A DNA stretch of 64,000 nt from Candidatus Saccharimonadota bacterium (GTDB lineage: Bacteria > Patescibacteriota > Saccharimonadia > CAILAD01 > BJGX01): NCBI GenBank assembly GCA_016191105.1, contig JACPPH010000002.1:141931-205930 (forward strand), read 5' to 3'. The notes under the pieces were generated by a model, which was not told where the DNA came from, searched no databases, and saw only the letters and a program-made list of their open reading frames with translations. Position 1 is the first letter of the stretch; each line of letters starts with the position of its first letter. Made by a program: the position numbers and the translations under genes. This document shows positions 4,977-41,243 of the stretch, in pieces.

Positions 4977-6011
4977 ATGCCACTTACTAAAACTACTAAG
5001 CGTCCCGACATCAATAAGCGCCGGATTATCAACGGCGTTGATGCCGATGTGGTGCAGCTGCACCCTATGAAACACAACTTTGCTTGGGAGGCCTATAATA
5101 CCGGCAATGCCAACCACTGGCTGCCAACCGAAATTGCTATGCAAGACGACATAGAGATGTGGAAATCGGGCAAGCTGACCAGCGACGAGCGCTTGGCTTT
5201 CGAAACAGCCTTGGGCTTTTTTACCACCGCCGACTCGATTGCCGCCAACAATCTAGTGCTAGCTTTTTATCGACACGTTACTAGCCCCGAGGTGCGCATG
5301 TACTTACTGCGTCAATCTTATGAGGAGGCCATTCACACTCATGCCTATCAGTATATTGTGGAAAGTTTGGGCCTAGACGGTGGTAAGATCTTTAATATGT
5401 ACCGCGAAAACGCCTCGCACTTTTCGAAAGCTGACTTTATTTTGACTTTCAACGAGGGTGTGTATGATCCTAAGTTCAAGACCGGCACCTTTGAGGCCGA
5501 TCAGAAATTTTTAGAAAATATGTGCGTGTTCTCGTTGATTTTGGAAGGCATATTCTTCTACTCCAGCTTTGCTGTGATATTTGGTTTTCAGCGCCAGCAC
5601 AAGATGACCGGCAGTGCCGAGCAGATTCAGTACATTATGCGCGACGAGACTGTGCACCTCAACTTTGGCATTGATATGATTAACACCATTAAAGATGAGC
5701 AGCCCGAACTCTGGACCAAGGACTTTCAAAAACGCATTGTTAAGCTGGTAAAAGATGCTGCTAAGCTCGAATACGCCTATGCCAAGAACGTTTTTCCACG
5801 CGGCATATTTGGTATGAACGCCGATGGCTTTCGTCAATACATAGAGCACATTGCCGACCGTCGCCTAAGTCGAGTCGGCCTGCCGCCTCAGTTTAATGTC
5901 GACAATCCATTCCCGTGGATGAGCGAAGCTGTCGACCTAAGTAAAGAAAAGAACTTCTTCGAAACTCGAGTAACCGAATACCAAACCGGCGGCACTCTTA
6001 ACTGGGAATAA
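4977..6011 (+). CDS. nrdB: Class I ribonucleotide reductase, beta subunit
   Basis: 344-aa ORF with SD AAGGAG, starting 22 nt after nrdA. Ferritin-like di-iron motifs are present (EEAIHTHAY, RDETVHLNF). Confidence 0.95.
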   Translation: MPLTKTTKRPDINKRRIINGVDADVVQLHPMKHNFAWEAYNTGNANHWLPTEIAMQDDIEMWKSGKLTSDERLAFETALGFFTTADSIAANNLVLAFYRHVTSPEVRMYLLRQSYEEAIHTHAYQYIVESLGLDGGKIFNMYRENASHFSKADFILTFNEGVYDPKFKTGTFEADQKFLENMCVFSLILEGIFFYSSFAVIFGFQRQHKMTGSAEQIQYIMRDETVHLNFGIDMINTIKDEQPELWTKDFQKRIVKLVKDAAKLEYAYAKNVFPRGIFGMNADGFRQYIEHIADRRLSRVGLPPQFNVDNPFPWMSEAVDLSKEKNFFETRVTEYQTGGTLNWE

Positions 6012-11451: not shown

Positions 11452-12571
11452 GAGTCCCCTCGATGCTATCTACAACTCTGGCAAGTTTTTTTACGAACCG
11501 CTCAGCAGAAAACTTCTTAGCTTGAGCTAGAAGGGTATTTTCACTCCAATTTATCTGCTCTGCCCTAGTGATTGCTTGGTTTAAACTGTCTTCATTGTCT
11601 TGGTCGAAAAAAACACCCGTTTCGTTTGCAACTACGGTCTCATTTGCTCCTCCGCCGCGTCGCGCGATCACCGGTGTCGAGGCCGCCATAGCTTCAACTG
11701 GCGTGAGGCCAAAGTCTTCGATGTTGGCAAAGACCAATCCTTTGGCCTGCTGCAGTAACTCAATCTTTTTGGCCTCGCTAACTCGACCCAAGAACTTTAT
11801 GTTTGGCGAGCTAGCTGCCAACTCTATAAGGCGGTCTTTGTCCGGGCCGTCGCCAGCAATCACTAGCGGCAACTTGTTTTTATTGAAAGTTTTAATTACA
11901 AGTTCAATGTTTTTATATTTAGACAGTACCGATAATATTAAATAGTAGCTGCCTTTTTCTTGACCAGTTGCGGATTTGAATTGCCCAACATTGACCGGTG
12001 GATAAACAACCTCAGCGCCGCGGCGATAAAACTTTCTAATGCGGTCTGCAATATAATTACTGTTTGCTAAAAAATGATCTACCCGATTTGAACCATAGAA
12101 ATCCCAAAGCCTTACTCTAGAAGTTGTTCGGCTAATAATGAATCGTGAGAGCGGCCCCACCTTGAACGGCCTAATTCGCTGGCCATCTAGATATTTTGGC
12201 CAGCTGTCCCACAACATCCGAGCTGGAGTATGACAATAGCAAATATGAACACAGTTTTTGGGTTTTTGAATATTCTTGGCCCAAGCGCTGGAGCTAGACA
12301 CTATTAAATCGTAACCACTAAAGTCAAGATTATCCACAGCCCTCGGGATAAGCGGCAACATAAACTGCGGTCGCTTCTTTAAGGCACCGGGGGCGTACTG
12401 CAAAAAACTAGTTTGGACTTTTCGATCGTTTAGACTCTCGGCAAAGAGCTTTTGATTACATATTAGGCTATAAAGATCAGCTTCTGGATACATTTTAGCA
12501 AGCTCAAAAAAAACTCGCTCAGCGCCACCAGACTTAACATTCAGCCAGTCATGAACCAGGGCTATCTTCAC
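11444..12571 (-). CDS. Glycosyltransferase family 4 (GT-B fold)
   Basis: 375 aa. E-x7-E-type region EDFGLTPVEAMAASTPVIA typical of GT4 enzymes. Confidence 0.8.
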   Translation of the reverse strand: MKIALVHDWLNVKSGGAERVFFELAKMYPEADLYSLICNQKLFAESLNDRKVQTSFLQYAPGALKKRPQFMLPLIPRAVDNLDFSGYDLIVSSSSAWAKNIQKPKNCVHICYCHTPARMLWDSWPKYLDGQRIRPFKVGPLSRFIISRTTSRVRLWDFYGSNRVDHFLANSNYIADRIRKFYRRGAEVVYPPVNVGQFKSATGQEKGSYYLILSVLSKYKNIELVIKTFNKNKLPLVIAGDGPDKDRLIELAASSPNIKFLGRVSEAKKIELLQQAKGLVFANIEDFGLTPVEAMAASTPVIARRGGGANETVVANETGVFFDQDNEDSLNQAITRAEQINWSENTLLAQAKKFSAERFVKKLARVVDSIEGTHE

Positions 12572-13842
12572 TTTTTACGACCTTCTATAACGCCAAAAAA
12601 CGTAAAGGCCACTAAGGCCAAGCTGCTGTCGGCCCAGCTGTGCAAAAATAAATTTGCTATCAAAATGCCAATAAGTGCCGCTGCTGCGCCTATCAAAATT
12701 TCGGTCTTTGGTTGTCGTAGCCAGCCAACTACCAAACTCCCAAAAAGCACCAGATAAGCCAAAATACCCAACCAACCGTATTCATAGCCAATTTGTAAAT
12801 ACCAGTTTTCGGTAATGAGTTGATTTGGGCTATAATAGCTGGCTGGCCCAGCTGTACCTAGGCCGTGACCCCAGGGCTGTTTAATAAACAATTCATAACC
12901 CCGTGCTAAGGCGCCGCCACGCACTACGTCGGGTGGCCCAATGGTTTTGTTGCTAAAAAACTGACCATGCAAGAAGATATTTTGAAGCACCACATTGTTG
13001 GAGTTACTTAACTGTGGCGCCAACAGAACATAACCTATTAAAACCAACCCAGCTAAGCTGGCGGCCATAATGATCTTAAATTTTGCTGGCAAAAACAAAA
13101 ATAATACCAGCGTTATTGCCACTATGGCTCCAAGCCAGCTGCTACGCGAGAAGCTTAGGCCAAGCGCTACTAGCAAGAATGCTAATATCGGTAGATAAAC
13201 TAGCCGTTTGGTTCGAATAAGCGCTGCAAGCGCCAAAGCCACTGGCAATATCATATATGTGCCCATCTGGTTTGGCCCGCCCAAAGTTGCAAAGGCTCTT
13301 GCTATGCCGCTACTCGCATCAATTACTTGCAGTGGATTAATAGTCATCGGGTTGTAGCCGATCAGCTGCAGCAGTTGATAAGGTATAACCGTAACCTGCA
13401 GAATGGCCAGCACCGACACAATCAGAGCCGGCAATAGAACAAGTCTTAACAGTTTGTTGTCGCCAAAATCAGCCGCATAAGCTTGGGCTATCAAAAACAA
13501 CCCAAGCGGTACTAGGTTGGTCTTAACGCCAAAAATTAACCCGTTGAGATTCGGCCTGTAAATAATGCTTACTCCTATGCCAAGCAAAATAATAGCTAGA
13601 ACGGTTAAATTGGTAAAGCTAAATTTAAAAAGAAGTTTTTTTCGCAAGACGCAGTTATACAACCAGATCGCTGCTAAGCCTACAAATAGCACTTCTTTCC
13701 AGGCCTGAAAGGCCGCCTGGTATCCAAAAACAGATCCCAGGACTACGCTTAAAAAGGCGTGAAAGGGCATAATTACCAATATTGCAATTAGCCCCCAGAC
13801 TGACAGTTGATTAAGTAAATTAAGCTGTTTTTTAATCGTCAT
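12568..13842 (-). CDS. O-antigen ligase/polymerase-like (Wzy_C) polytopic membrane protein
   Basis: 424 aa with about 10-12 hydrophobic segments and a SFSRSSWLG loop of the O-antigen ligase type. Confidence 0.65.
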   Translation of the reverse strand: MTIKKQLNLLNQLSVWGLIAILVIMPFHAFLSVVLGSVFGYQAAFQAWKEVLFVGLAAIWLYNCVLRKKLLFKFSFTNLTVLAIILLGIGVSIIYRPNLNGLIFGVKTNLVPLGLFLIAQAYAADFGDNKLLRLVLLPALIVSVLAILQVTVIPYQLLQLIGYNPMTINPLQVIDASSGIARAFATLGGPNQMGTYMILPVALALAALIRTKRLVYLPILAFLLVALGLSFSRSSWLGAIVAITLVLFLFLPAKFKIIMAASLAGLVLIGYVLLAPQLSNSNNVVLQNIFLHGQFFSNKTIGPPDVVRGGALARGYELFIKQPWGHGLGTAGPASYYSPNQLITENWYLQIGYEYGWLGILAYLVLFGSLVVGWLRQPKTEILIGAAAALIGILIANLFLHSWADSSLALVAFTFFGVIEGRKK

Positions 13843-32206: not shown

Positions 32207-33484
32207 TTACTTCACGTTACGCAAGGCAATTGAGACAGCTTTTTTGCTTTTTCGCAGAGCATATACACTGTAGCTGATACCAGTCATACCAAGCATGCCA
32301 GCCACACCACCCGCAACACCAGTCTGTGGCAAAGTTGTTGGCTGAGACGGTGTAACTGGAGTTACTGGAGGAGGTGTTGGTGTTAGTGGTGTCGGGGTAG
32401 GAGGCTTAGGTGGAGTAAAACTGGCTGTACTACAGACGTCTTCGCGGGTTTCGTTAGAGCCTGTACAGGCAACATTATCAACAGTTGTTACTGTAGCCGG
32501 AATGTTGTCTTTCACCTTAGCCAAAAACTGAATGTTACCATCGGCATTTGGCGAGTAATCACCCACCATCACGCCCTCACGGAACAATGCAGTATCATTT
32601 AGCTGTACGCCTTGGGGTTGGGTCACTAGATACATCTTTACCGACCCAGGCACAATATCAACGTATTGTGGCAATTTATCGGTTACTACCACTTGGCGCA
32701 TAACTGCATTGCCGGTATTCTTGTAGTTGATGTTGTACTTTACAATGTCGCCTGGTTTGGCAGCCATAGTCTTCTGCCAGTTACCGCTACCGGGCACACT
32801 AATTTCTTTGTTTATTTTTAGATTCGATGCAGTCACTTTAACCTTAATGGTCACAAGCAGGCCGTACTGAAAACAGCCCTTGACATTACCGTCGGGGCCA
32901 GTCTCGCCAATTGGTGCACCATCGCCTACAATGCTATCGGCTAGCTTGTAGCCGCCTGGCACACTGTTGGTGTAGGCTGTGGCGCTTCCTTGCTCATACT
33001 CTAAGTTAAAAGGCTGGGTACTTTTTAGATCCACACTAGCAGCCACCGTACCTGGCTGGGCATTGCTAGCTGAAATGTAGCTGATCGAACGTAGCGCCGT
33101 GTCATTGCCGGCTGGCACCAAAATTTTAACTTTGGTGTTGCGAGCAATACCAGCGCCACTAGCGTTCAGGCTAGAATCTGCGCCGTTGTGTACATAAGTA
33201 CGCATCAGCAGCTCTTGGCCTTCACGAACCTGCATGTTATCGGTAAAACCGCCTTCACTAGTGTTAGCGGCGTCTTTTACAGTGTAGAACTCGCGCTCAT
33301 CGCCATAGTTGGGGGTGCCCACAAAGGAGTTAAATGTAACATAGTCAAAGCCAGCCACACCAGGTGTGTACTGCTTAACTGGTCGCTCTGGACTCCAGTC
33401 TGCTACTGCCATGACAGGAACTAAGATCCCAATCACAACAATGCCGATCACAGAGGCCAGCTTACGCAAAACATTCTTTTTCAT
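32207..33484 (-). CDS. Secreted surface protein with C-terminal LPXTG (LPQTG) sortase signal
   Basis: 425 aa. Signal peptide/TM at the N-terminus, beta-rich repeats, Pro/Thr stalk, LPQTG (32318-32332), then a hydrophobic stretch and an RKSKK tail. SD AAAGGAG. Confidence 0.8.
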   Translation of the reverse strand: MKKNVLRKLASVIGIVVIGILVPVMAVADWSPERPVKQYTPGVAGFDYVTFNSFVGTPNYGDEREFYTVKDAANTSEGGFTDNMQVREGQELLMRTYVHNGADSSLNASGAGIARNTKVKILVPAGNDTALRSISYISASNAQPGTVAASVDLKSTQPFNLEYEQGSATAYTNSVPGGYKLADSIVGDGAPIGETGPDGNVKGCFQYGLLVTIKVKVTASNLKINKEISVPGSGNWQKTMAAKPGDIVKYNINYKNTGNAVMRQVVVTDKLPQYVDIVPGSVKMYLVTQPQGVQLNDTALFREGVMVGDYSPNADGNIQFLAKVKDNIPATVTTVDNVACTGSNETREDVCSTASFTPPKPPTPTPLTPTPPPVTPVTPSQPTTLPQTGVAGGVAGMLGMTGISYSVYALRKSKKAVSIALRNVK

Positions 33485-33815
33485 AAGCTATAAGCTCCTT
33501 TCATAGAAGTATTAGTTAATTAAATAGCGTTCTCGTTCGGTTGTGTATATGCAATGTAAAAGGACTTTTGTATCTATTGAGCAGTAATGGTACTATATTA
33601 TACGCTTTAAGTCAATAGATAATTGTTATGTTTTTGCAGGGTTTTTCGAAAGGCCCTGAGATCAAGTTTTTTATGAAAGCCTGATCTCAAAGACTTATAG
33701 TTTCGGGTGGGTGTCGTCCCGGAGACCGAAGTCTCCAGGACGAGCGACACCCAAGAGTGGACTCTGTGTGCCATCGCACCGCGAATTGAGTCCGCTAATT
33801 CGCGGTGTTTAAGCC

Positions 33816-35306
33816 CTAGGCGGGCTTGGGCGACGGACCGGGCGGGGCCGTCGTGGGTGGCACCGGCGCCGAGCTGGGCGGCGTTGCCCTGGTGGTGGGC
33901 GGGCTTCCCCCCGGGCACAGCTGCGGACAACCGGTGCTCGGGTTCGGCACTCCTGGATTGATGTCCGGGTTGGGCGGCCTGGGGGTCACCCCACCGCAGC
34001 CACTTGGACCACAGCCTTTCACCGGCGCCGGCACAGCCGGATTGCTGATAGGCTGCTGCTCGGCGATCTTGCCCTGAGGCTTGGTCGTCGGCGTCGTCAC
34101 CGTCGGCGGTGGGATGGTCGGCCCTCCCGTCGGCGGGGGCGTCACCGTCGGCGGTGGGATTGTTGACTCCGGTGGCAGGTTTGGCGGAACCGGCACCTGC
34201 GGCACGTTCGGCGTGGGCTTGAGCGACCCCCTGTTCCCGCACGAGGCGAAGAACATGATGTATGCGTTGTCCTTCCAGAACTTCACGTACAGCCGGGGCG
34301 TGCTGGTGACGTAGTCGAACTGCACCACGGTACCGTTTTGCACGACTGTGTTGTACAGGCGGGTACCCGCTGGCAACACTCCACGTTCCACCATGGAACC
34401 TCGAACGAAGTCCAGCACGATGAACAGATCCCAACCGGCCTTGGCGGCATCGCCGACCGGGCGGGGGTCCTCGTAGGGCTTGTCTTGGCTGGCCATGATG
34501 GTCCGCGCCGCATCGTCCAAGAATGCCGGGCTGCCAACACCCTTCAGGAGCAAGTCGGAGAACATGTCCTCCGGCGTGTTTCCTTGGATGCCGTTGAGCA
34601 CAACACACTTGGTCTCACACGTCACGCCCACTCCCTGTACGAGGCCACGGCGCTGGGCAATCTTCTGAACGAAGATGGCAAGGTCGACGGTGTCGGGCTG
34701 ATGCGGTGGCGCCGTGCTTGGCGGTGTGGTAGCCATAGTTGTTGGCGCAGCTGTGCCTTGCGGTTGTGTCCCGCTCGGTACTGCCGTGGTGGTGGAAGGA
34801 GCCGTGGTGTCGCTGGGCGATGTGCTTGGCGTTGAACCACCCCCGTTGCTGGTGGTGGTAGTGACGCCGGCCAGGATTGCGACGCACTTGGTGTCTGGCG
34901 GGTCCACTCCGAGTTGCTTGAGCTTGTCGGAGCTTTCCTGCACCACCTTGGCGTCGTCGCTGCCAACTCCCTGGCACAACTCGACTGTCAGCTTGAGACA
35001 TTCGGTCGGCGTGATGCCGGCCTCTTGCAGCTTCTTGTCGTCGTCGGAGTTGTTGGTGACTCCGATCCGCTTCTGGCAGTCCTCCAGACTCACCTTGGCC
35101 TTGCGCTCTTCGGTGGTTGCGGGCGGAACAGACGCGGTCGGCGCTGGCACCTGGGTGGTGTCGGAGCCTTGAGGCCCAGGTGATTGCTGGGTTGGTTGGG
35201 CACTCGCAGTGCCGCTTTTGGCTGCAATACCGGCTACACCCACCGCCCCCAAAAGGACAGTGAACACAACCGCGCAAGCAGCGAAGATCGCATGACCCCT
35301 GGTCAT
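33816..35306 (-). CDS. Signal-anchored secreted protein, Pro/Thr-rich linkers, Cys-containing domains, unknown function
   Basis: ATG at 35306 preceded by GGAGGTGA. MTRGHAIFAACAVVFTVLLGAVGVAGIAA anchor, a globular middle, and a PPPTVTPPPTGGPTIPPPTVTT tail. The ORF-track upstream extension to 35387 has no SD. Followed by an 11-bp perfect hairpin at 33777-33807. Confidence 0.7.
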   Translation of the reverse strand: MTRGHAIFAACAVVFTVLLGAVGVAGIAAKSGTASAQPTQQSPGPQGSDTTQVPAPTASVPPATTEERKAKVSLEDCQKRIGVTNNSDDDKKLQEAGITPTECLKLTVELCQGVGSDDAKVVQESSDKLKQLGVDPPDTKCVAILAGVTTTTSNGGGSTPSTSPSDTTAPSTTTAVPSGTQPQGTAAPTTMATTPPSTAPPHQPDTVDLAIFVQKIAQRRGLVQGVGVTCETKCVVLNGIQGNTPEDMFSDLLLKGVGSPAFLDDAARTIMASQDKPYEDPRPVGDAAKAGWDLFIVLDFVRGSMVERGVLPAGTRLYNTVVQNGTVVQFDYVTSTPRLYVKFWKDNAYIMFFASCGNRGSLKPTPNVPQVPVPPNLPPESTIPPPTVTPPPTGGPTIPPPTVTTPTTKPQGKIAEQQPISNPAVPAPVKGCGPSGCGGVTPRPPNPDINPGVPNPSTGCPQLCPGGSPPTTRATPPSSAPVPPTTAPPGPSPKPA

Positions 35307-35529
35307 CCGATCACCTCCTTGTTGTTGTCTGGGTGATGTAAAGCTGCGAACTGGGTGCAGGTTTTCTCTCCTGTACTCAGCCCACATATCAGATTACACT
35401 CTTTTCGTCTATACACAAGTATAAATCTCACATTTGGGTTGAGCGGGTGGCGCCCGGCGGGAACTCGATCCGAAGATCGAAGCTCCCTGCCGGGACCACG
35501 AGGTAGGGGCCAGAACGTCATCCTGACCG

Positions 35530-36006
35530 CTACTTTGTGCCGTGCTTGAACAGCGCCGTGCAGCCGATGATGCCACCGATCACAAACGGGGCAAGAAATG
35601 CCACGATCCGTGGCCCGCCTGCGTCCGTGAGCATGGCAGCCACGACTGCACTGCAGATTGCTGCGAACACCGTTGCAAAGCAGCCCATGAGCACGCCCAC
35701 AAGGATGTGGAGGCTCTTGCCATTGGCTGGGTCTGCGCCGCCGCCAGCGGGTGGCGGCGGTGTGGCGGCATTGGCCGATGGATCGCGTGTGAGGAACCAG
35801 AAGGTCCCCCCTGCGCCACCCAGGCCAACCACCAGGGCGGTGAGGAATCCATACAGCCACGACCAATTGAGTCCTGCGACTACAAGGGTCACGAGCAGCA
35901 GGACTCCGCCAATCACCCCGCTGATGATCAGCTGGGTTTGCTGGTCGAGCCCACCTCCGGGCGATGGGGCCGGCGCGGCATAGCGCGCACGGTTGAAACC
36001 AGGCAT
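35530..36006 (-). CDS. Small integral membrane protein (about 4 TM), unknown function
   Basis: ATG at 36006 preceded by GAAGGTGG. 158 aa with four hydrophobic segments and a Pro/Gly/Ala loop. Followed by hairpin 35453-35494 with a central CGAA loop. Confidence 0.65.
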   Translation of the reverse strand: MPGFNRARYAAPAPSPGGGLDQQTQLIISGVIGGVLLLVTLVVAGLNWSWLYGFLTALVVGLGGAGGTFWFLTRDPSANAATPPPPAGGGADPANGKSLHILVGVLMGCFATVFAAICSAVVAAMLTDAGGPRIVAFLAPFVIGGIIGCTALFKHGTK

Positions 36007-36027
36007 AATGCCCACCTTCTTTCGTAT

Positions 36028-36106
36028 ATGTTCGGGAGCGGTACCTGGTCGTGAACTTCATTGTTCATGTGCCCTCACGGGGGCAATATACCAGGATAGC
36101 GATCCT
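36028..36106 (-). repeat. Promoter/operator/leader module, copy 1 (upstream of the 4-TM protein gene)
   Basis: Minus-strand reading: AGGATCGCTATCCT palindrome, TATATT, GCCCC, GTGAGGGCAC, stem-loop CATGAAC..GTTCACG, GACCAGGTACCGCTC, CGAACAT. Near-identical to 36469-36545. Confidence 0.75.
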
Positions 36107-36172
36107 GAAATTGTGGGTCACGAGCGGCCGCGCTCCGGGGTAAACCGGAGCACAGCCTCTCGCGTGGCGAGA

Positions 36173-36454
36173 TCACGTGAGCACTTGGTCGATGATCTCG
36201 AGCATTGCGGCCTTGAACGCCTTGTTGGCATCTTCGTCCACAACGTCCGGGAAGGACTTCAAGAAGTCGGGGCCACAGAGGTCGATCATGGCCTGCACGC
36301 CTTCCTTGTTGAACTTGACCGTGCCGCCGCCGCTGATCTCCAGTTGCTCGAGAGCAACCTTCTGCAGCAGCTCCAGGGCGCGGGCCTTCATGGCCGGGTC
36401 GGCGTCGGCTGTTGCCGACTTGGACTTCTCGTAGCGGTCTTTGCTGAACGCCAT
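36173..36454 (-). CDS. Small acidic protein (93 aa), paralogous to the C-terminus of the 415-aa protein
   Basis: ATG at 36454 preceded by AGGAGA. MAFSKDRYEKSKS...FLKSFPDVVDEDANKAFKAAMLEIIDQVLT. The long ORF-track extension (to 37117) is an out-of-frame shadow across the upstream gene. Confidence 0.65.
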   Translation of the reverse strand: MAFSKDRYEKSKSATADADPAMKARALELLQKVALEQLEISGGGTVKFNKEGVQAMIDLCGPDFLKSFPDVVDEDANKAFKAAMLEIIDQVLT

Positions 36455-36468
36455 GATGATTCTCCTGC

Positions 36469-36545
36469 ATGTTCGTGAGCGGTACCTGGTCGCGAACCGA
36501 AGTTCACGTGCCCTCACAGGGGCAATATACCAGGATAGCGATCCT
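36469..36545 (-). repeat. Promoter/operator/leader module, copy 2 (upstream of the 93-aa gene)
   Basis: Same module as 36028-36106. The stem-loop here is CGTGAAC-TTCG-GTTCGCG, so the loop sequence differs while the stem is retained. Confidence 0.75.
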
Positions 36546-36570
36546 AACATTCTGTTGAGTTGGCCGGGGA

Positions 36571-36599
36571 GCTCCGCTGCACACAGTGTGCAGCGGAGC
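36571..36599 (-). terminator. Perfect 14-bp GC-rich hairpin after the 415-aa gene (no U-tract)
   Basis: GCTCCGCTGCACAC-A-GTGTGCAGCGGAGC, 27 nt downstream of the TAG at 36627-36629 and immediately upstream of module copy 2. Confidence 0.6.
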
Positions 36600-36626
36600 C
36601 AACCCCGTTTACCGCTCCCGGTAAAT

Positions 36627-37874
36627 CTAGTCGTCGGCGAAGACCTCCTCGATGATGTCGAAGAACGCGGCGTAGAACACGTCGCGATCGGACTCGAAGT
36701 CACCGTTGGGATACTTCTCGAGGTAGAGGTTGAGGGCGCAGAACGCCACATCGGTGATCCCTTCCTCACTGAACGACCATGGCTTGCGAAGCGGGTCGCG
36801 CGCCCACATGCCGACGGGTGTGCGCTCGATGCACTGCTTGGCTGTCGCCACACGCGCGTCGAAGTTCGGTGGCCGAACATTGGAGCGTTGCTGTCCCGAA
36901 GGACCGCCGCGCGAACCAGCACCCGAACCACTGCTACCACCCGGTCGACTCGACGAGCCGCCACTGGCGCCAGCACCCGACCCGGACTTGGGCCGTGCGC
37001 CTCTGCCAGAGGAGCCACCTTGCGAGCCGCGTGGTCGTTGCCCATTGCCGCCGTTGCGAACGAAGATCCCCTCGAGATTCTCTCGAGTGATGTCGTCGTT
37101 CCGGTCCGGATGGGCAAACGCCAAGACGCTTCGCCAGCAGAACTTGGCCCACTTCTTGCGGTCGCCGTAGGTGAACTTCTCGCCCTTCGGGTCCACCTTG
37201 CGAGCCTCGGCCTCGAAGATCACCATGATCTGGGTCATCCAACCCCGGTACTGGCGATACAAGTCCTGCTCTTCTGGTGTACGACGCGCGAAGGCGGTGA
37301 AGCGCGCCAGGTTGTCGTCGTCTCGTGGTGGCGCGCCGAACTCGGCATGCAAACCCTGGACACCCGAGAAGTTCTCGCGGATGCCAGAGATCGCGGTGTT
37401 CAGCTCTGTGATCTCTCGATCGTTCATGTCGTCTCCCTCCTGGGGGTCTTTGGTTCCCCCCGGAGGGGATGTAGGTTCTGGTTCTTCTGCAAGATCGAGC
37501 ATGAGCGTGACGATGCCACGCTTAACCATCTCGAAGCTGGCGTTGGCTTTGCGTGTCGCGTTGAGGTTGACCCCAACAATCCGACGCACGAGCCGCCACG
37601 GCTCGGGGTCTTGCTCGGTCGCTTGTACGGGTATGCCTTGTGCTTCGAGCCATGGCACCCAGTCTTCGTAGGAAAGGGTTGGCTCGGGGTCTTCGCCTTC
37701 TGGTGGTGTGTCACCTGCCCCTGAATCTTCAAGGACTTTACCAAGTGCCACCAAGAAGTCTTCTTCACCCACCTGTCCGTCATCGGCAAGCTTGTCGCCC
37801 AGTTCAACAATGAGCTTGGGCTTAAGGTCGATCGAAACTTCCAGGTCAGCACATAGCGTTTCGAGATGCGGCAT
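36627..37874 (-). CDS. Acidic 415-aa protein with a J-domain-like HPD motif and a Gly/Ser-rich linker, function unknown
   Basis: ATG at 37874 preceded by GAGGAGGG. KKWAKFCWRSVLAFAHPDRNDD (HPD codons 37112-37104) resembles DnaJ helix II plus the HPD loop. It is followed by a roughly 55-aa G/S/R-rich stretch and a C-terminal domain alignable to the 93-aa protein. Confidence 0.7.
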   Translation of the reverse strand: MPHLETLCADLEVSIDLKPKLIVELGDKLADDGQVGEEDFLVALGKVLEDSGAGDTPPEGEDPEPTLSYEDWVPWLEAQGIPVQATEQDPEPWRLVRRIVGVNLNATRKANASFEMVKRGIVTLMLDLAEEPEPTSPPGGTKDPQEGDDMNDREITELNTAISGIRENFSGVQGLHAEFGAPPRDDDNLARFTAFARRTPEEQDLYRQYRGWMTQIMVIFEAEARKVDPKGEKFTYGDRKKWAKFCWRSVLAFAHPDRNDDITRENLEGIFVRNGGNGQRPRGSQGGSSGRGARPKSGSGAGASGGSSSRPGGSSGSGAGSRGGPSGQQRSNVRPPNFDARVATAKQCIERTPVGMWARDPLRKPWSFSEEGITDVAFCALNLYLEKYPNGDFESDRDVFYAAFFDIIEEVFADD

Positions 37875-38124
37875 TGCTTCCCTCCTCGGGTAGTGCCCCG
37901 GGAGGGGCGTCTTGTTTACTGTTACCTACAGGAGCCTGCGTACGGCATTCAATCTTGGGCGGCAAGATCGCTTACACGTACACAGGTGCCTGTAGGCAGT
38001 TTGTAAACTAAAAAGCAGGTAAAATAGCCTGTTCTATACGAACAAGCAACCCTCCTGCCTACTTATTTAGGGAGCGGATATTTCAAATTGAACGATCCAT
38101 AGCCTAAGCTATGAACTCGGAAAC

Positions 38125-38153
38125 AATATACTACAAAACTATCGTTTTGTCAA
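38125..38153 (-). promoter_or_regulatory. Consensus sigma70-type promoter pointing into island 1
   Basis: Minus strand: TTGACA (38153-38148), a 17-nt spacer, then TATATT (38130-38125). Lies just after the stop of the 38164-38511 gene, about 250 nt upstream of the 415-aa start. Confidence 0.5.
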
Positions 38154-38163
38154 GTATTTTCTA

Positions 38164-38511
38164 CTATTTTTGGTATTCAGCTCGTAGTGCTTTTCGAGCT
38201 TCAGATACGTCTTCGAACAGCTCGGTTTTCATGCGCCTAATCTCTTCGGCTACAATTGCCTGGTAGTCGAGTACATGATCGTTCAGGTATTGCCCCACCT
38301 TGGTGTCATCACCTGCATCCATTAACACTACAAGCTCGTTAAGCTCAGTCTCGGTTAAGGCATCTATAATTCGAACCGCCAACCTGTTCTGAACAATCTC
38401 GGCCATAGTATCCAGCAGTTCAGCCTTTTGTTCATCCGAAACAGCTTCGATCCCCAGCTCTTTAAAAAGTACAACCCCAAATTGATCTGTTGGGATTTTT
38501 TGATTGTCCAT
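38164..38511 (-). CDS. Hypothetical small acidic helical protein
   Basis: 115-aa ORF with backbone composition, starting 3 nt after the upstream gene. Confidence 0.55.
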   Translation of the reverse strand: MDNQKIPTDQFGVVLFKELGIEAVSDEQKAELLDTMAEIVQNRLAVRIIDALTETELNELVVLMDAGDDTKVGQYLNDHVLDYQAIVAEEIRRMKTELFEDVSEARKALRAEYQK

Positions 38512-38513
38512 TG

Positions 38514-39893
38514 TTACTTTTTCTCCTTATCTTTCTTATCTTTGCGTCGTTTTTGAATAATAAACTCAGCCAAACCAAAGCCACCGGCCACAGCCGAAGC
38601 ACTTACGGCATTTGGCACCTCGCCGGCCAACGATACGCCCGCAACCGCCGCTGAGCCTATTAAGCCCAACCCTACAGACGTAGCTATCTTATACCGATTA
38701 CCTCTACCCTGTTTGGCCGCCTCTTTACTCTCCGATTCCAGCTCGTAATTTAGGGCCTTGCCTACAATATTTGCAACCTCCCTAGGTTTGTTGTTATAAA
38801 TCCAGTTTTCTATGCCGCCTACCTGAGATGGTTTTATACCGCTACCCCTCGTTCTGGCAAGCTCATTCTCGGCCTTTTGCATGTTTAAAAGCATAAGCTG
38901 AACTTCTTGGGGCAGCTCCTGGCCAGTGGTGGCGTTATTAATAAAGGCCTGAGCCTCAGGGCTTAAGGTCTCTCCAGGGACATTGTTAACCCTATATACA
39001 AATGTGTCGAGTACAGCCTTGCCGGAGGCATTGTTTTCTGACAGTATCTTATTGAGATCTTTCTGGAGGTTCTTTTCTTTGCGGCCCTCTCGAACTGTTT
39101 CCTGTCCTCTATCTATATTGCCCCTGGCAGCCATATATCCTCCTAAGCCAATCATGGCCGGAGCAGGTGCAAAGCCCAACATGGTGGCCCCAACCCCACC
39201 TACCATCAACCCTATACCAAGGCCTACCCTTAGCCCAGGGTGTCGGGCTAGGAATGCTCCCGCTCTACCACCTTTGCGGGCCGCCTTGGCAGCGGTTTCG
39301 GACTTAGCTCTCTCGCAGCGCTCATTTGCAACCATCATCAACAGCTGAACCTGGGTCTCGGGCTTTTCCAAGACTTCTAAATTGTTTCGGTTTACCAGCT
39401 CTTTCATATTTTGTTTCACCTGGTTTTGCAGCTCCTGATTATATTGAGCTTCGGCATCTAAAATGTCCTGCTTACCAAAGCCCAGCCATCTGGCAAAAAC
39501 TGACTTTTGTTTTTCCCTGGCCACAGCAAGGGTATTTCTGGCTTTTTCTAGATCGGTCAGCTTGGGGTCGGTTGCAAACTCTTTATCTCTCTGGGTAGCC
39601 CAATCAAAAACCTTGTTGCCACCACGAAATATACTCTCTGCAGCGTTCTTTACGCCCCTGCCAAGCTCTTTACCGACTGTTTTGGTGGCATCAACTATCT
39701 TGCCAACATCCATCGAGCCCTCGTCGCCCCGTAATCTCGAAGAAGAGGCAGCTTCAGACTCGGCACGCATGTTTTTTAGGTCATCATAGACGTTTGAGCT
39801 GGCGCCAGAGTCACTAGACTTTTCACCAGAATCCTTTGGCCCAAAATTTACGTTATAATTTCCAGGCGAACTGCTGTATGCTTCAGCACTCAT
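38514..39893 (-). CDS. Hypothetical membrane protein (disordered N-terminus, coiled coil, Gly-rich TM segments, Lys-rich tail)
   Basis: 459-aa ORF. Hydrophobic glycine-zipper-like segments GLGIGLMVGGVGATMLGF and VGLGLIGSAAVAGVSLAG. Confidence 0.55.
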   Translation of the reverse strand: MSAEAYSSSPGNYNVNFGPKDSGEKSSDSGASSNVYDDLKNMRAESEAASSSRLRGDEGSMDVGKIVDATKTVGKELGRGVKNAAESIFRGGNKVFDWATQRDKEFATDPKLTDLEKARNTLAVAREKQKSVFARWLGFGKQDILDAEAQYNQELQNQVKQNMKELVNRNNLEVLEKPETQVQLLMMVANERCERAKSETAAKAARKGGRAGAFLARHPGLRVGLGIGLMVGGVGATMLGFAPAPAMIGLGGYMAARGNIDRGQETVREGRKEKNLQKDLNKILSENNASGKAVLDTFVYRVNNVPGETLSPEAQAFINNATTGQELPQEVQLMLLNMQKAENELARTRGSGIKPSQVGGIENWIYNNKPREVANIVGKALNYELESESKEAAKQGRGNRYKIATSVGLGLIGSAAVAGVSLAGEVPNAVSASAVAGGFGLAEFIIQKRRKDKKDKEKK

Positions 39894-39938
39894 AGTTACC
39901 TCTGATTATAGTTTAATTTACAGATCAACGCAAACAGC

Positions 39939-41243
39939 TTATGCTGAGCCTAGCAGTTCTTTGAGCCTTGACTCAATTTGATCTGGCATATAGCTCCTGT
40001 GCCACTTTTTATAGTCGTAATCTGGGCGTGGAAACACAAAACGAGCCAATTCTGGATAGTCGCCGCTATCTTTGGCTATTTGCATGGCCGTGCGTACCTC
40101 GGCGATTTCGCCCACGCACTCTAGCGGCTTAATGCCATCTAAGCCTAACATCTGCTCGAAGGTACCACGTAAATTATTATCGGCAAACAAGTCGCGACCA
40201 TTGAATATCTCCATAAGCTCGGCTTTTTTTAGAAAAGGCGAGAATATAGTGTACACAAAGGCGCATTTAGGGCATTGGCCGCACCAGCTAAGCTTGTCTT
40301 TTTTATCCAAGTAAAAGTTACCATTGCAGCTCGAGAACAAGCCTTTGTATTTATCGAAGTAGTCTCGACAAAAAATCTCGGCAATTCGCAACTCGCTCAA
40401 AGGTCGCAAAACTGAATAAAAGTCCATATTAGCAGCTACATTATCTTTCAGGTATTTGTCCATAATAACCTCAAACATTGAGCTTTTTGAATATTGGTGG
40501 TTTACCGGCAGGTCTTTCCAGGTGGTGTTGGGTTCATCAGTTGAGGATTCAACCGCCCAAACCAAGCTCTTTTTGCCGGTTAAAATAGCCAAAACTGCCC
40601 CCATAAAGCCAATAATGGCCGTGACCGGCACATGACCGTTGTAGGCATCTTGCTCGTTAACCTCTTTTAGCTTGGGGTCGATTTGCCGGTTTATGCCAAA
40701 GCTTGGCTTGCCAATTTTATCTAGCAGGGGCTTAAACCGGTCGTGATGATAAACCACCCAGGTGAAATAATCCTCGCCTAACTTGTCTAACAACTCAGCG
40801 GCAACTATTGAATCCTTACCGCCTCCAACAGCCAGCAGCGAGCCTTTTAAATCTAGGCTTGGAGCCGGGCTGGCATGATCTGAACCCGCTGGAAACTTGG
40901 CAACCACAGCCGGATCAAGCTGGTTGGTATACAAAAACTGGCTTAAGCCATACAGATAAACGTCGTCGAAAAACGCCTTTTGAGCCGAATTAAGTCCACC
41001 TTTTTTAACGACTATCTCGGGTGCAAGATAAGCTTTGTAGTAACTAATGCCGGCCATTATCCACAAGCCAAACAAGACCCGATCGAATGCGGCTTGGTCG
41101 TAGCCTGCTGGATCGAGATTATCCCAGATTATTCGCTCCTCGAACTTAAGCTCGCCATCGAAGCTGTACTTTAAGGTCGCTATGTTAGCTTTGGTATCAA
41201 AGCTGTAATCTTCAAATATAAACTGTTTATACTTTGGCTTCAT
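39939..41243 (-). CDS. murL: PP-loop (GGGKDS) ATP-utilising protein; candidate MurL-type UDP-MurNAc-L-Ala-L-Glu epimerase
   Basis: 434 aa with a 4-nt overlap with murD. PP-loop-like LLAVGGGKDSIVAAELL and a CGQCPKC cluster. The gene order matches the published MurD2-MurL pair. Assigned by context and motif only. Confidence 0.45.
   Translation of the reverse strand: MKPKYKQFIFEDYSFDTKANIATLKYSFDGELKFEERIIWDNLDPAGYDQAAFDRVLFGLWIMAGISYYKAYLAPEIVVKKGGLNSAQKAFFDDVYLYGLSQFLYTNQLDPAVVAKFPAGSDHASPAPSLDLKGSLLAVGGGKDSIVAAELLDKLGEDYFTWVVYHHDRFKPLLDKIGKPSFGINRQIDPKLKEVNEQDAYNGHVPVTAIIGFMGAVLAILTGKKSLVWAVESSTDEPNTTWKDLPVNHQYSKSSMFEVIMDKYLKDNVAANMDFYSVLRPLSELRIAEIFCRDYFDKYKGLFSSCNGNFYLDKKDKLSWCGQCPKCAFVYTIFSPFLKKAELMEIFNGRDLFADNNLRGTFEQMLGLDGIKPLECVGEIAEVRTAMQIAKDSGDYPELARFVFPRPDYDYKKWHRSYMPDQIESRLKELLGSA

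Follow-up and report, generated by a model that had tools for sequence, protein, structure and literature searches.

An orphan modular protein with an HPD tripeptide heads a hypervariable, GC-rich gene cassette in Saccharibacteria

J-domain proteins (DnaJ/Hsp40, PF00226) carry a histidine-proline-aspartate (HPD) tripeptide, in the form HPD(R/G/S)N, that ends a helix with many basic and hydrophobic residues and is followed by a second helix and then by a Gly-rich low-complexity linker. Replacing H33 or D35 in this motif destroys J function in all systems where it was tried, and P34 is in direct contact with DnaK (PMC8215388). Flexible replacement islands, such as O-antigen and capsule loci, occupy a fixed chromosomal site with sharp recombination boundaries in conserved flanks, and they combine highly divergent haplotypes within a species with persistently atypical GC (guanine plus cytosine) content and envelope-associated products. 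Polymorphic toxin/immunity loci pair a constant N-terminus and a swapped remainder with an allele-matched small gene and are replaced at the strain level, and microProtein-type regulators are stand-alone paralogues of a domain. In a 64,000-nt stretch of a Candidatus Saccharibacteria genome (contig JACPPH010000002.1, positions 141,931 to 205,930; hereafter the window), we analyzed a gene, gene 1, which together with its neighbors shares all of these features and whose product was read in a first-pass annotation as a possible Hsp70 co-chaperone-like recruiter. Gene 1 is not a J-domain protein, and its HPD tripeptide is a subfamily-limited motif inside a different fold. We somewhat favor, as the best explanation of the whole, an orphan modular protein that heads a cassette encoding an envelope module, and we consider this locus context more interesting than the original J-domain claim.

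The product of the 415-aa open reading frame is identical to NCBI entry MBI2797891.1 / HYX70_01155, a “hypothetical protein” of Candidatus Saccharibacteria bacterium. Our analysis showed that gene 1 is genuine and codes for an acidic orphan protein with three folded modules, one acidic and one basic disordered linker (Table 1), and no signal peptide was obvious by inspection. An AlphaFold2 (AF2) model built from a 7-sequence multiple sequence alignment (MSA) had a mean predicted local distance difference test (pLDDT) score of 66.7 and a predicted template modeling (pTM) score of 0.35, with pLDDT values of 74-87 across residues 200-275 around the HPD; AF2 on the single sequence (pLDDT 41.8) was of no use. 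In our alignments the N-terminal domain holds the best-conserved motif of the family, LSYE[DE]WVPWL..GIPV..W..VR..VG..ATRK. The helical domain in the AF2+MSA model contains a helix (239-254), a loop (255-263), and a further helix (264-275), and the basic linker that follows (57 residues: 21 G, 14 S, 7 R, and 0 F) varies in composition among homologs: P0003 and P0004 have an S/Q/R-rich version, P0002 a shorter one that is K/R/G-rich, and type B proteins a K/R-rich one.

An exhaustive HMMER search of 1.84 billion representatives returned only four relatives of gene 1, and a profile search added one more; overall, gene 1 has only about six relatives. The family falls into two types. Type A relatives P0002 (348 aa), P0003 (500 aa), and P0004 (242 aa) have the HPD-region domain and the C-terminal domain in common. 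Type B members (P0005, P0006, a 435-aa protein in locus L007, and a 416-aa protein in L015) share with type A the N-terminal domain and the PPGGT motif alone (E ~1e-14; 7.7e-15 for the gene-1 domain against a type B protein), and they have an unrelated middle region and no C-terminal domain. The small downstream gene, gene 2, co-varies with gene-1 type, encoding about 94 aa in type A loci and a different protein of 147-177 aa in type B loci, and the set of features is that of a constant N-terminal region, a variable C-terminal region, and a type-matched small gene. All placeable gene-1 relatives lie in Saccharibacteria at the same chromosomal site, and none of five family members had a Pfam match of any kind at E<=10. 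Judged by these searches, the family is orphan, modular, and restricted to Saccharibacteria.

The first-pass annotation had aligned the last 48 residues of gene 1 without gaps to the C-terminus of the 93-aa gene-2 product and counted 12 identities, which is exactly right (12/48). The Smith-Waterman score of the two C-termini was 47 versus 23.2 +/- 3.9 for shuffles (z = 6.05, 0/2000 as high), and BLASTP found 13/46 identities at an E-value of 0.003. The similarity is strong at the profile level, as an hhalign comparison between the small proteins and the C-terminal domains, four of each, gave a probability of 97.6% (E 2.6e-12, 73 columns), bearing out the idea that the domain also exists as a free small protein. 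With homologs included, the paralogous span covers gene-1 residues ~340-413 and residues 21-93 of the small protein (BLASTP of L1_95 against residues 335-412 of W_415: E 4.6e-8). Proteins of 94-95 aa that are orthologous to the window's 93-aa protein (E 2.5e-9) are encoded directly after every other type A gene 1 (L001, L008, and L010), and the pair of large and small genes is kept in 4/4 type A loci. The duplication is thus real and larger than first described. The conservation of the pair, and a downstream gene of about 94 aa that encodes only the C-terminal domain of its larger neighbor, recall microProtein-type regulators; unlike in those systems, the domain has no known relatives here, and any interaction or regulatory consequence is putative.

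Gene 1 leads a series of four genes on the minus strand (415, 93, 158, and 496 aa; MBI2797891-888), which form a cassette of about 4.2 kb (~33750-37950) with 58-72% GC in a chromosome of ~46% GC. GC content changes abruptly, from 0.36-0.51 in flanking DNA to 0.58-0.72 within the cassette, and GC content at third codon positions (GC3) is 0.69-0.85 versus 0.488 +/- 0.051 in the backbone (n=47 genes, maximum 0.62), which consists of Saccharibacteria housekeeping genes (SecA, FKBP, Mur ligase, aminoacyl-tRNA synthetases, MreBCD, PBP2, and RF1). The immediate neighbors in the window are a DUF5663 gene and the gene for a DUF11-like LPQTG protein, and the placed relatives of genes 1 and 4, all in one clade of Saccharibacteria, share the arrangement SecA-FKBP-Mur ligase-...-DUF5663-[cassette]-DUF11/LPXTG protein-RF1 (loci L001, L002-L004, L007, L008, L012-L014, L015, and L017, from NCBI metagenome-assembled genomes and JGI and Logan assemblies). 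Every locus that we profiled shows a GC step at this site, with the GC3 contrast recurring in L001, L002, and L008 and the step in total GC in L015 and L017. Cassette GC3 stays at 0.7-0.9 across loci, 4-7 standard deviations from that of its genome, though the cassette orthologs are only 37-68% identical at the protein level. The cassette is a compositional island that has not drifted toward the composition of its genome, and no relevant account of such an island in Saccharibacteria came up in our literature searches.

Several simple accounts of this composition were considered and set aside. Because independent assemblies from NCBI, JGI, and Logan all place the cassette at this one site, with the same junctions, it is neither an assembly chimera nor a one-off recent insertion. 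The elevation of GC3 (0.69-0.85 vs 0.49) rules out high GC as a by-product of Gly/Pro/Ala-rich proteins, and GC-biased gene conversion is weakened as an explanation by the presence of the low-GC 459-aa gene and the DUF5663 gene within the same hypervariable block.

A comparison of L008 and L015 revealed how the locus varies. Their flanks are 99.6% and 98% identical, and the FKBP, Mur ligase, DUF11-like, and RF1 proteins are 99-100% identical, while the ~6.3 kb in between, which run from the end of the Mur ligase gene into the 3' portion of gene 4, either cannot be aligned or are only ~71% identical. The right-hand breakpoint lies inside gene 4, so that its Pro-rich C-terminal tail is conserved and the rest is variable. 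One of the two alleles has a type A gene 1 and a 95-aa gene 2, and the other has a type B gene 1 and two 147-aa genes; L007 and L012 show a milder form of the same replacement pattern. From this divergence between near-identical flanks we conclude that the locus is a replacement-type hypervariable cassette, in which types A and B behave as alternative alleles. Unlike in flexible replacement islands, the GC content of the cassette is above that of the genome and not below it, there are no glycosyltransferases or other known enzymes and only four orphan genes, and there are dedicated structured RNA leaders. What is unusual relative to known islands is the combination of elevated GC3, orphan content, and covarying RNA leaders in an epibiotic bacterium of the candidate phyla radiation.

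The leaders lie upstream of genes 2 and 3 and share an element of ~67 nt in which helix P1 (CCUGRY/RYCAGG) encloses two hairpins, forming a three-way junction that is followed by a ACCGCUCCC box (ACCGCUC[A/C]C). The two window copies are ~90% identical, and nine copies from five loci each adopt the same fold when folded individually. A covariance model recovered eight copies, with E-values of 1e-21 to 1e-3, and gave no convincing match in the rest of the window. In the alignment, 94% of cells are paired and 11/18 pairs show compensatory changes, values that 0/500 shuffles reach. The cassette, including the leaders of genes 1-3, had no Rfam match, and on this comparison the three-way junction is an undescribed motif with two covarying copies in the cassette. 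An exact 14-mer from the leader, CAGGTACCGCTCCC, also occurs in at least 120 metagenome contigs, but the covariance model gave just 19-22 bits on the 80 loci listed, and we therefore regard these as chance matches.

We can describe gene 1 and its cassette with high confidence as far as modularity, paralogy, allele replacement, composition, and leaders are concerned, and the envelope character of the cassette is suggested by gene 3, which is membrane-like, and by gene 4, which is anchored, Pro/Thr/Cys-rich, and extracytoplasmic. Little is known about the determinants by which Saccharibacteria, as obligate epibionts, recognize their hosts. A compact locus of four orphan genes with membrane and extracytoplasmic products, held at a fixed site, swapped wholesale, and marked by odd GC3 and RNA leaders, is a candidate specificity locus for the interface with the host or with phages. 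As for mechanism, we tentatively suggest that the four products may together constitute or support an envelope module on which diversifying selection acts at such an interface, that gene 1 may be its cytoplasmic adaptor or scaffold, and that the free 93-aa domain could interact homotypically with the tethered C-terminal domain, pairing or competing with it in a microProtein-like manner. Several points weigh against this proposal. The cassette proteins are orphans that match nothing in Pfam, NCBIfam, PHROGs, PADLOC, or the PDB; the putative interaction of the free and tethered domains is drawn from paralogy and adjacency only; and diversifying selection would rest on two haplotype comparisons and not on the ratio of nonsynonymous to synonymous substitution rates (dN/dS). 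In addition, the persistence of high GC3 is not accounted for by an envelope module, and the AF2 model is only moderately confident.

The competing account that survives best is that of a polymorphic effector or toxin locus, in which a constant N-terminal delivery domain would carry swappable C-terminal modules and the small downstream gene would encode a cognate immunity- or chaperone-like protein. The conserved N-terminal domain with its unrelated remainders in types A and B, the matching of gene 2 to type, and the allele swap between near-identical genomes would all fit such a locus. However, no cassette protein has a known toxin, immunity, or trafficking domain in Pfam, NCBIfam, PHROGs, or PADLOC, and no secretion-system genes are present in the locus. 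In type A loci, gene 2 shares homology with the very C-terminal module of gene 1, a relationship unlike that of an immunity protein to its toxin. Variation also extends to genes 3 and 4 and to the low-GC genes upstream; the whole ~6-kb region varies, membrane and secreted proteins included. We consider this account unlikely.

A further possibility is that the cassette is recently acquired foreign DNA, whose donor could be, for instance, an actinobacterial host of high GC or a mobile element, with gene 1 as a passenger of the donor. Saccharibacteria are epibionts of Actinobacteria, in which GC3 values of 0.7-0.9 are typical, and both the sharp step in GC and GC3 and the actinobacterial range of the cassette values would be expected of such a donor. 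Against this, the same architecture is found at the same site in at least 8 independent assemblies from diverged lineages, and the exhaustive gene-1 search found few relatives, with all placeable ones in a Saccharibacteria context. A word-limited gene-4 search likewise returned only unannotated relatives, three of which could be placed, all at the cassette site. We found no integrase or recombinase, flanking att repeats, or adjacent tRNA at the cassette (the tRNA genes of the window are far off), and no similarity to phage or plasmid records, and on these grounds we reject a prophage or an integrative and conjugative element as its origin. The family alignment also had no match in JGI metagenomes or IMG/VR contigs, and the promoter and first leader segment of gene 1 are backbone-type and conserved. 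Recent acquisition is thus quite unlikely.

We give a lower rating to the idea closest to the original claim, namely that gene 1 contains a diverged minimal J-like module (helix, HPD loop, helix) that recruits Hsp70/DnaK, with the C-terminal domain as a cargo or partner module, and consider it improbable. The HPD codons were correctly placed at 37112-37104 (residues 255-257), in the context TYGDRKKWAKFCWRSVLAFAHPDRNDDITR and, more widely, ...DRKKWAKFCWRSVLAFAHPDRNDDITR.... In the AF2+MSA model the tripeptide sits between two predicted helices, as a J-domain loop would require; its local context is similar to J helix II, for example in P0003 (VWRKLQLLLHPDSNNS), and HPD is retained in 3/4 type A proteins. 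An hhalign comparison of the gene-1 family with a J alignment also produced a local 20-column match (P 0.004), but at a probability of just 8.5%. The Pfam DnaJ model matched neither the 415-aa protein at E<=1 nor any of five family members at E<=10, and no J-domain chain was found among all PDB chains at E<=10, either by phmmer of the protein or with a profile of the HPD region. We also used our own J-domain hidden Markov model (HMM), a rough profile of ten J domains, run with all filters off. It aligned only “HPDRNDD” in the 415-aa protein (domain -1.6 bits, whole sequence 0.1 bit), a background score that ranks 7th among the 51 window proteins. The best family member, P0003, reached 2.5 bits over 16 residues, where the J consensus reads “aYrklarkYHPDknks”, whereas genuine J domains, among them the divergent ones of HscB, DjlA, and SV40 T antigen, scored 75-122 bits, these being the model's own training sequences.

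Structure and conservation point the same way. The four-helix J fold was found neither in the AF2+MSA model nor in structure searches, and because the model is of moderate quality, the missing fold is not absolute. Helix I, which was not evident in the first reading either, is absent, as is helix IV, and the motif lies at residue 255 inside an unrelated helical domain. HPD is not invariant in the family, as P0004 has HSD, which was found on two independent contigs, and type B alleles lack the motif entirely. Since P34 contacts DnaK, the Pro-to-Ser change in P0004 is at least suspect. Among the real genes of the window the tripeptide turns up a single time, where about one occurrence is expected by a rough residue-frequency estimate over ~18,000 residues, and HPD by itself is therefore at chance level. 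The G/S/R-rich stretch that had been likened to a DnaJ G/F region is real, at 57 aa, but it is basic and lacks Phe, and the Gly/Phe-rich region that follows the J domain in class A/B J proteins is not present. No DnaK gene was found in the 64,000-nt window. The likeness to a J domain is therefore a short motif resemblance only, and a co-chaperone-like role is not supported. The value of this comparison lies in a correction, as an HPD tripeptide and a Gly-rich linker are not enough to call a J domain, and the protein should not be annotated as a co-chaperone.

We give little credence to a divergent sigma-factor-like protein or other transcription regulator, in which the helical domain would correspond to sigma domain 2, the C-terminal domain would form a further module, the free paralog would act as an antagonist, and the cassette leaders would be the targets. 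Low-scoring sigma-70 domain 2 hits turned up in each of the two structure searches (Foldseek: 1ku2, 4g7h_F, 3ugp, 3ugo, 9fok_F, 9uma_F, and 5tmc_F at E-values of 4-8.5), a weak lead that we do not trust, and against it five family members had no Pfam match at E<=10, including Sigma70_r2 and r4, no helix-turn-helix was detected, and type B proteins lack the helical domain. Scarcely credible, finally, is a host-directed cassette, in which actinobacterial-like GC3 would be kept because the products, or even the nucleic acid, exert their effect inside or on the actinobacterial host, the type A HPD hairpin would be a minimal mimic engaging host DnaK, and allele replacement would track host range.

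Table 1. Positions of the genes, protein segments, and non-coding elements discussed here. Coordinates are those of the window unless a locus is given.
Feature	Position	Strand	Description
Gene 1	36627..37874	-	415 aa, modular, acidic, pI (isoelectric point) 4.75; type A member of a tiny family confined to Saccharibacteria
N-terminal domain, residues ~60-130	37485..37697	-	Common to type A and type B proteins
Acidic disordered linker, residues 131-150	37425..37484	-	pLDDT 34-46; short motif PPGGTxxPxEG
Helical domain, residues 151-275	37050..37424	-	Specific to type A; bears HPD
HPD tripeptide, residues 255-257	37104..37112	-	HPD in P0001-P0003, HSD in P0004, absent in type B
G/S/R-rich basic linker, residues 274-330	36885..37055	-	Disordered, pI 12
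C-terminal domain, residues 336-415	36630..36869	-	Three predicted helices; paralogous to gene-2 product
Gene 2	36173..36454	-	93 aa, MBI2797890.1; free paralog of gene-1 C-terminal domain
Gene 3	35530..36006	-	158 aa, MBI2797889.1; hydrophobic, probably polytopic membrane protein
Gene 4	33816..35306	-	496 aa, MBI2797888.1
DUF11/DUF7619-like gene	32207-33484	-	Immediately downstream of cassette
Variable block	L008:7866-14126 vs L015:2208-9183		469/541-aa membrane protein, DUF5663, cassette genes 1-4
RNA leader upstream of gene 2	36471..36536	-	Three-way junction and box; 83.4 bits
RNA leader copy upstream of gene 3	36030..36097	-	Same element; 77.3 bits
Other leader copies	L001:4694-4760, 5178-5225; L008:11588-11658, 12075-12154; L010:921-989; L007:9148-9214		
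Perfect 14-bp inverted repeat	36571..36599		Directly after gene-1 stop codon
Near-consensus sigma-70 promoter	38125..38153	-	TTGACA-17-TATATT, 11/12; just past DUF5663 stop codon
Gene-1 long leader	37872-38165	-	Order: promoter, hairpin, box, terminator-like element, long hairpin, C-rich box, Shine-Dalgarno
Low-GC leader part	38010..38077	-	Read directly from sequence
CCGCTCCC box	38077-38070	-	Low-GC part of gene-1 leader
Terminator/attenuator-like element GCAGGAGGG...CCTGCTTTTT	38058-38010	-	Gene-1 leader
Long conserved hairpin	37926..37995	-	Invariant apical UGCCGCCCA; low-GC/high-GC boundary
Genes 2/3 with similar starts	36173-36454, 35530-36006; L008:11703-11990, 12204-12698; L010:1038-1322		
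Further genes 2/3 with similar starts	L001:4809-5096, 5094-5332; L015:6023-6466, 7230-7754		

Gene 1 has a long leader of its own (Table 1), which the promoter at 38153-38125, conserved as TTGACA-17-TATATT in L001, L002, L008, and L015, would drive. The leader, with its long hairpin, is conserved in six loci of both cassette types, and this conservation suggests that the leader is possibly an attenuator or riboregulator. The inverted repeat that follows gene 1 has no U-tract and may be a 3' hairpin of the transcript or a processing site.

Gene 3 is kept in the cassettes of L002, L008, and L015. The gene-4 protein has a hydrophobic anchor at its N-terminus, a globular core, linkers rich in Thr/Pro, and a tail rich in Pro, and across 7 homologs it has six invariant cysteines (C103, C230, C234, C356, C460, and C464) and a conserved core motif (QGVGVTCE...YNTVVQ.G.VVQF). 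Its family has at least 8 members, none of which is annotated, with no relatives in Pfam or the PDB, and a scan of genome contigs with gene 4 found one locus only; P0014 has a gene-4-type tail on a different core. Beside every cassette there is a DUF11-like protein (53-61% identity, and 100% between L008 and L015), which has a signal peptide and a C-terminal LPQTG, hydrophobic stretch, and basic tail, that is, a sortase-type cell-wall sorting signal. Upstream of the cassette the gene content varies (L001:527-3150 vs window 38164-41243; L002/L008): the window has MurL, a 459-aa membrane protein, and DUF5663, in L001 MurL is followed directly by gene 1, and L002, L008, and L015 have no MurL and instead a 469-541-aa protein and DUF5663.

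A few minor observations concern the protein sequences themselves. PPGGTxxPxEG is kept in gene-1 proteins of both types, and type B proteins have a related copy, PPGDPKNPE[EG]GDM, also near the N-terminus. The best PDB matches of the N-terminal domain profile were all to the C-terminal strand-helix of the Ena/VASP EVH1 domain (E 0.2-1.8), but as all of them are to one protein and not significant, we do not trust this likeness and mention it solely for the known binding of EVH1 domains to Pro-rich peptides, given that the cassette proteins are themselves rich in Pro. A match of the C-terminal domain profile to the G-H region of insect hemoglobin (E 1.5) was a weak lead that we likewise do not trust. 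In each genome, the gene-2 and gene-3 products begin alike (MPGAFTDDDFADEP and MTGVFTDDDWGDP in L008; MSAPNNPF and MTAPFNPF in L015), and the shared leader element seems to reach into the first codons of both genes. These similar starts may be a result of concerted evolution or may serve as a functional tag at the N-terminus.

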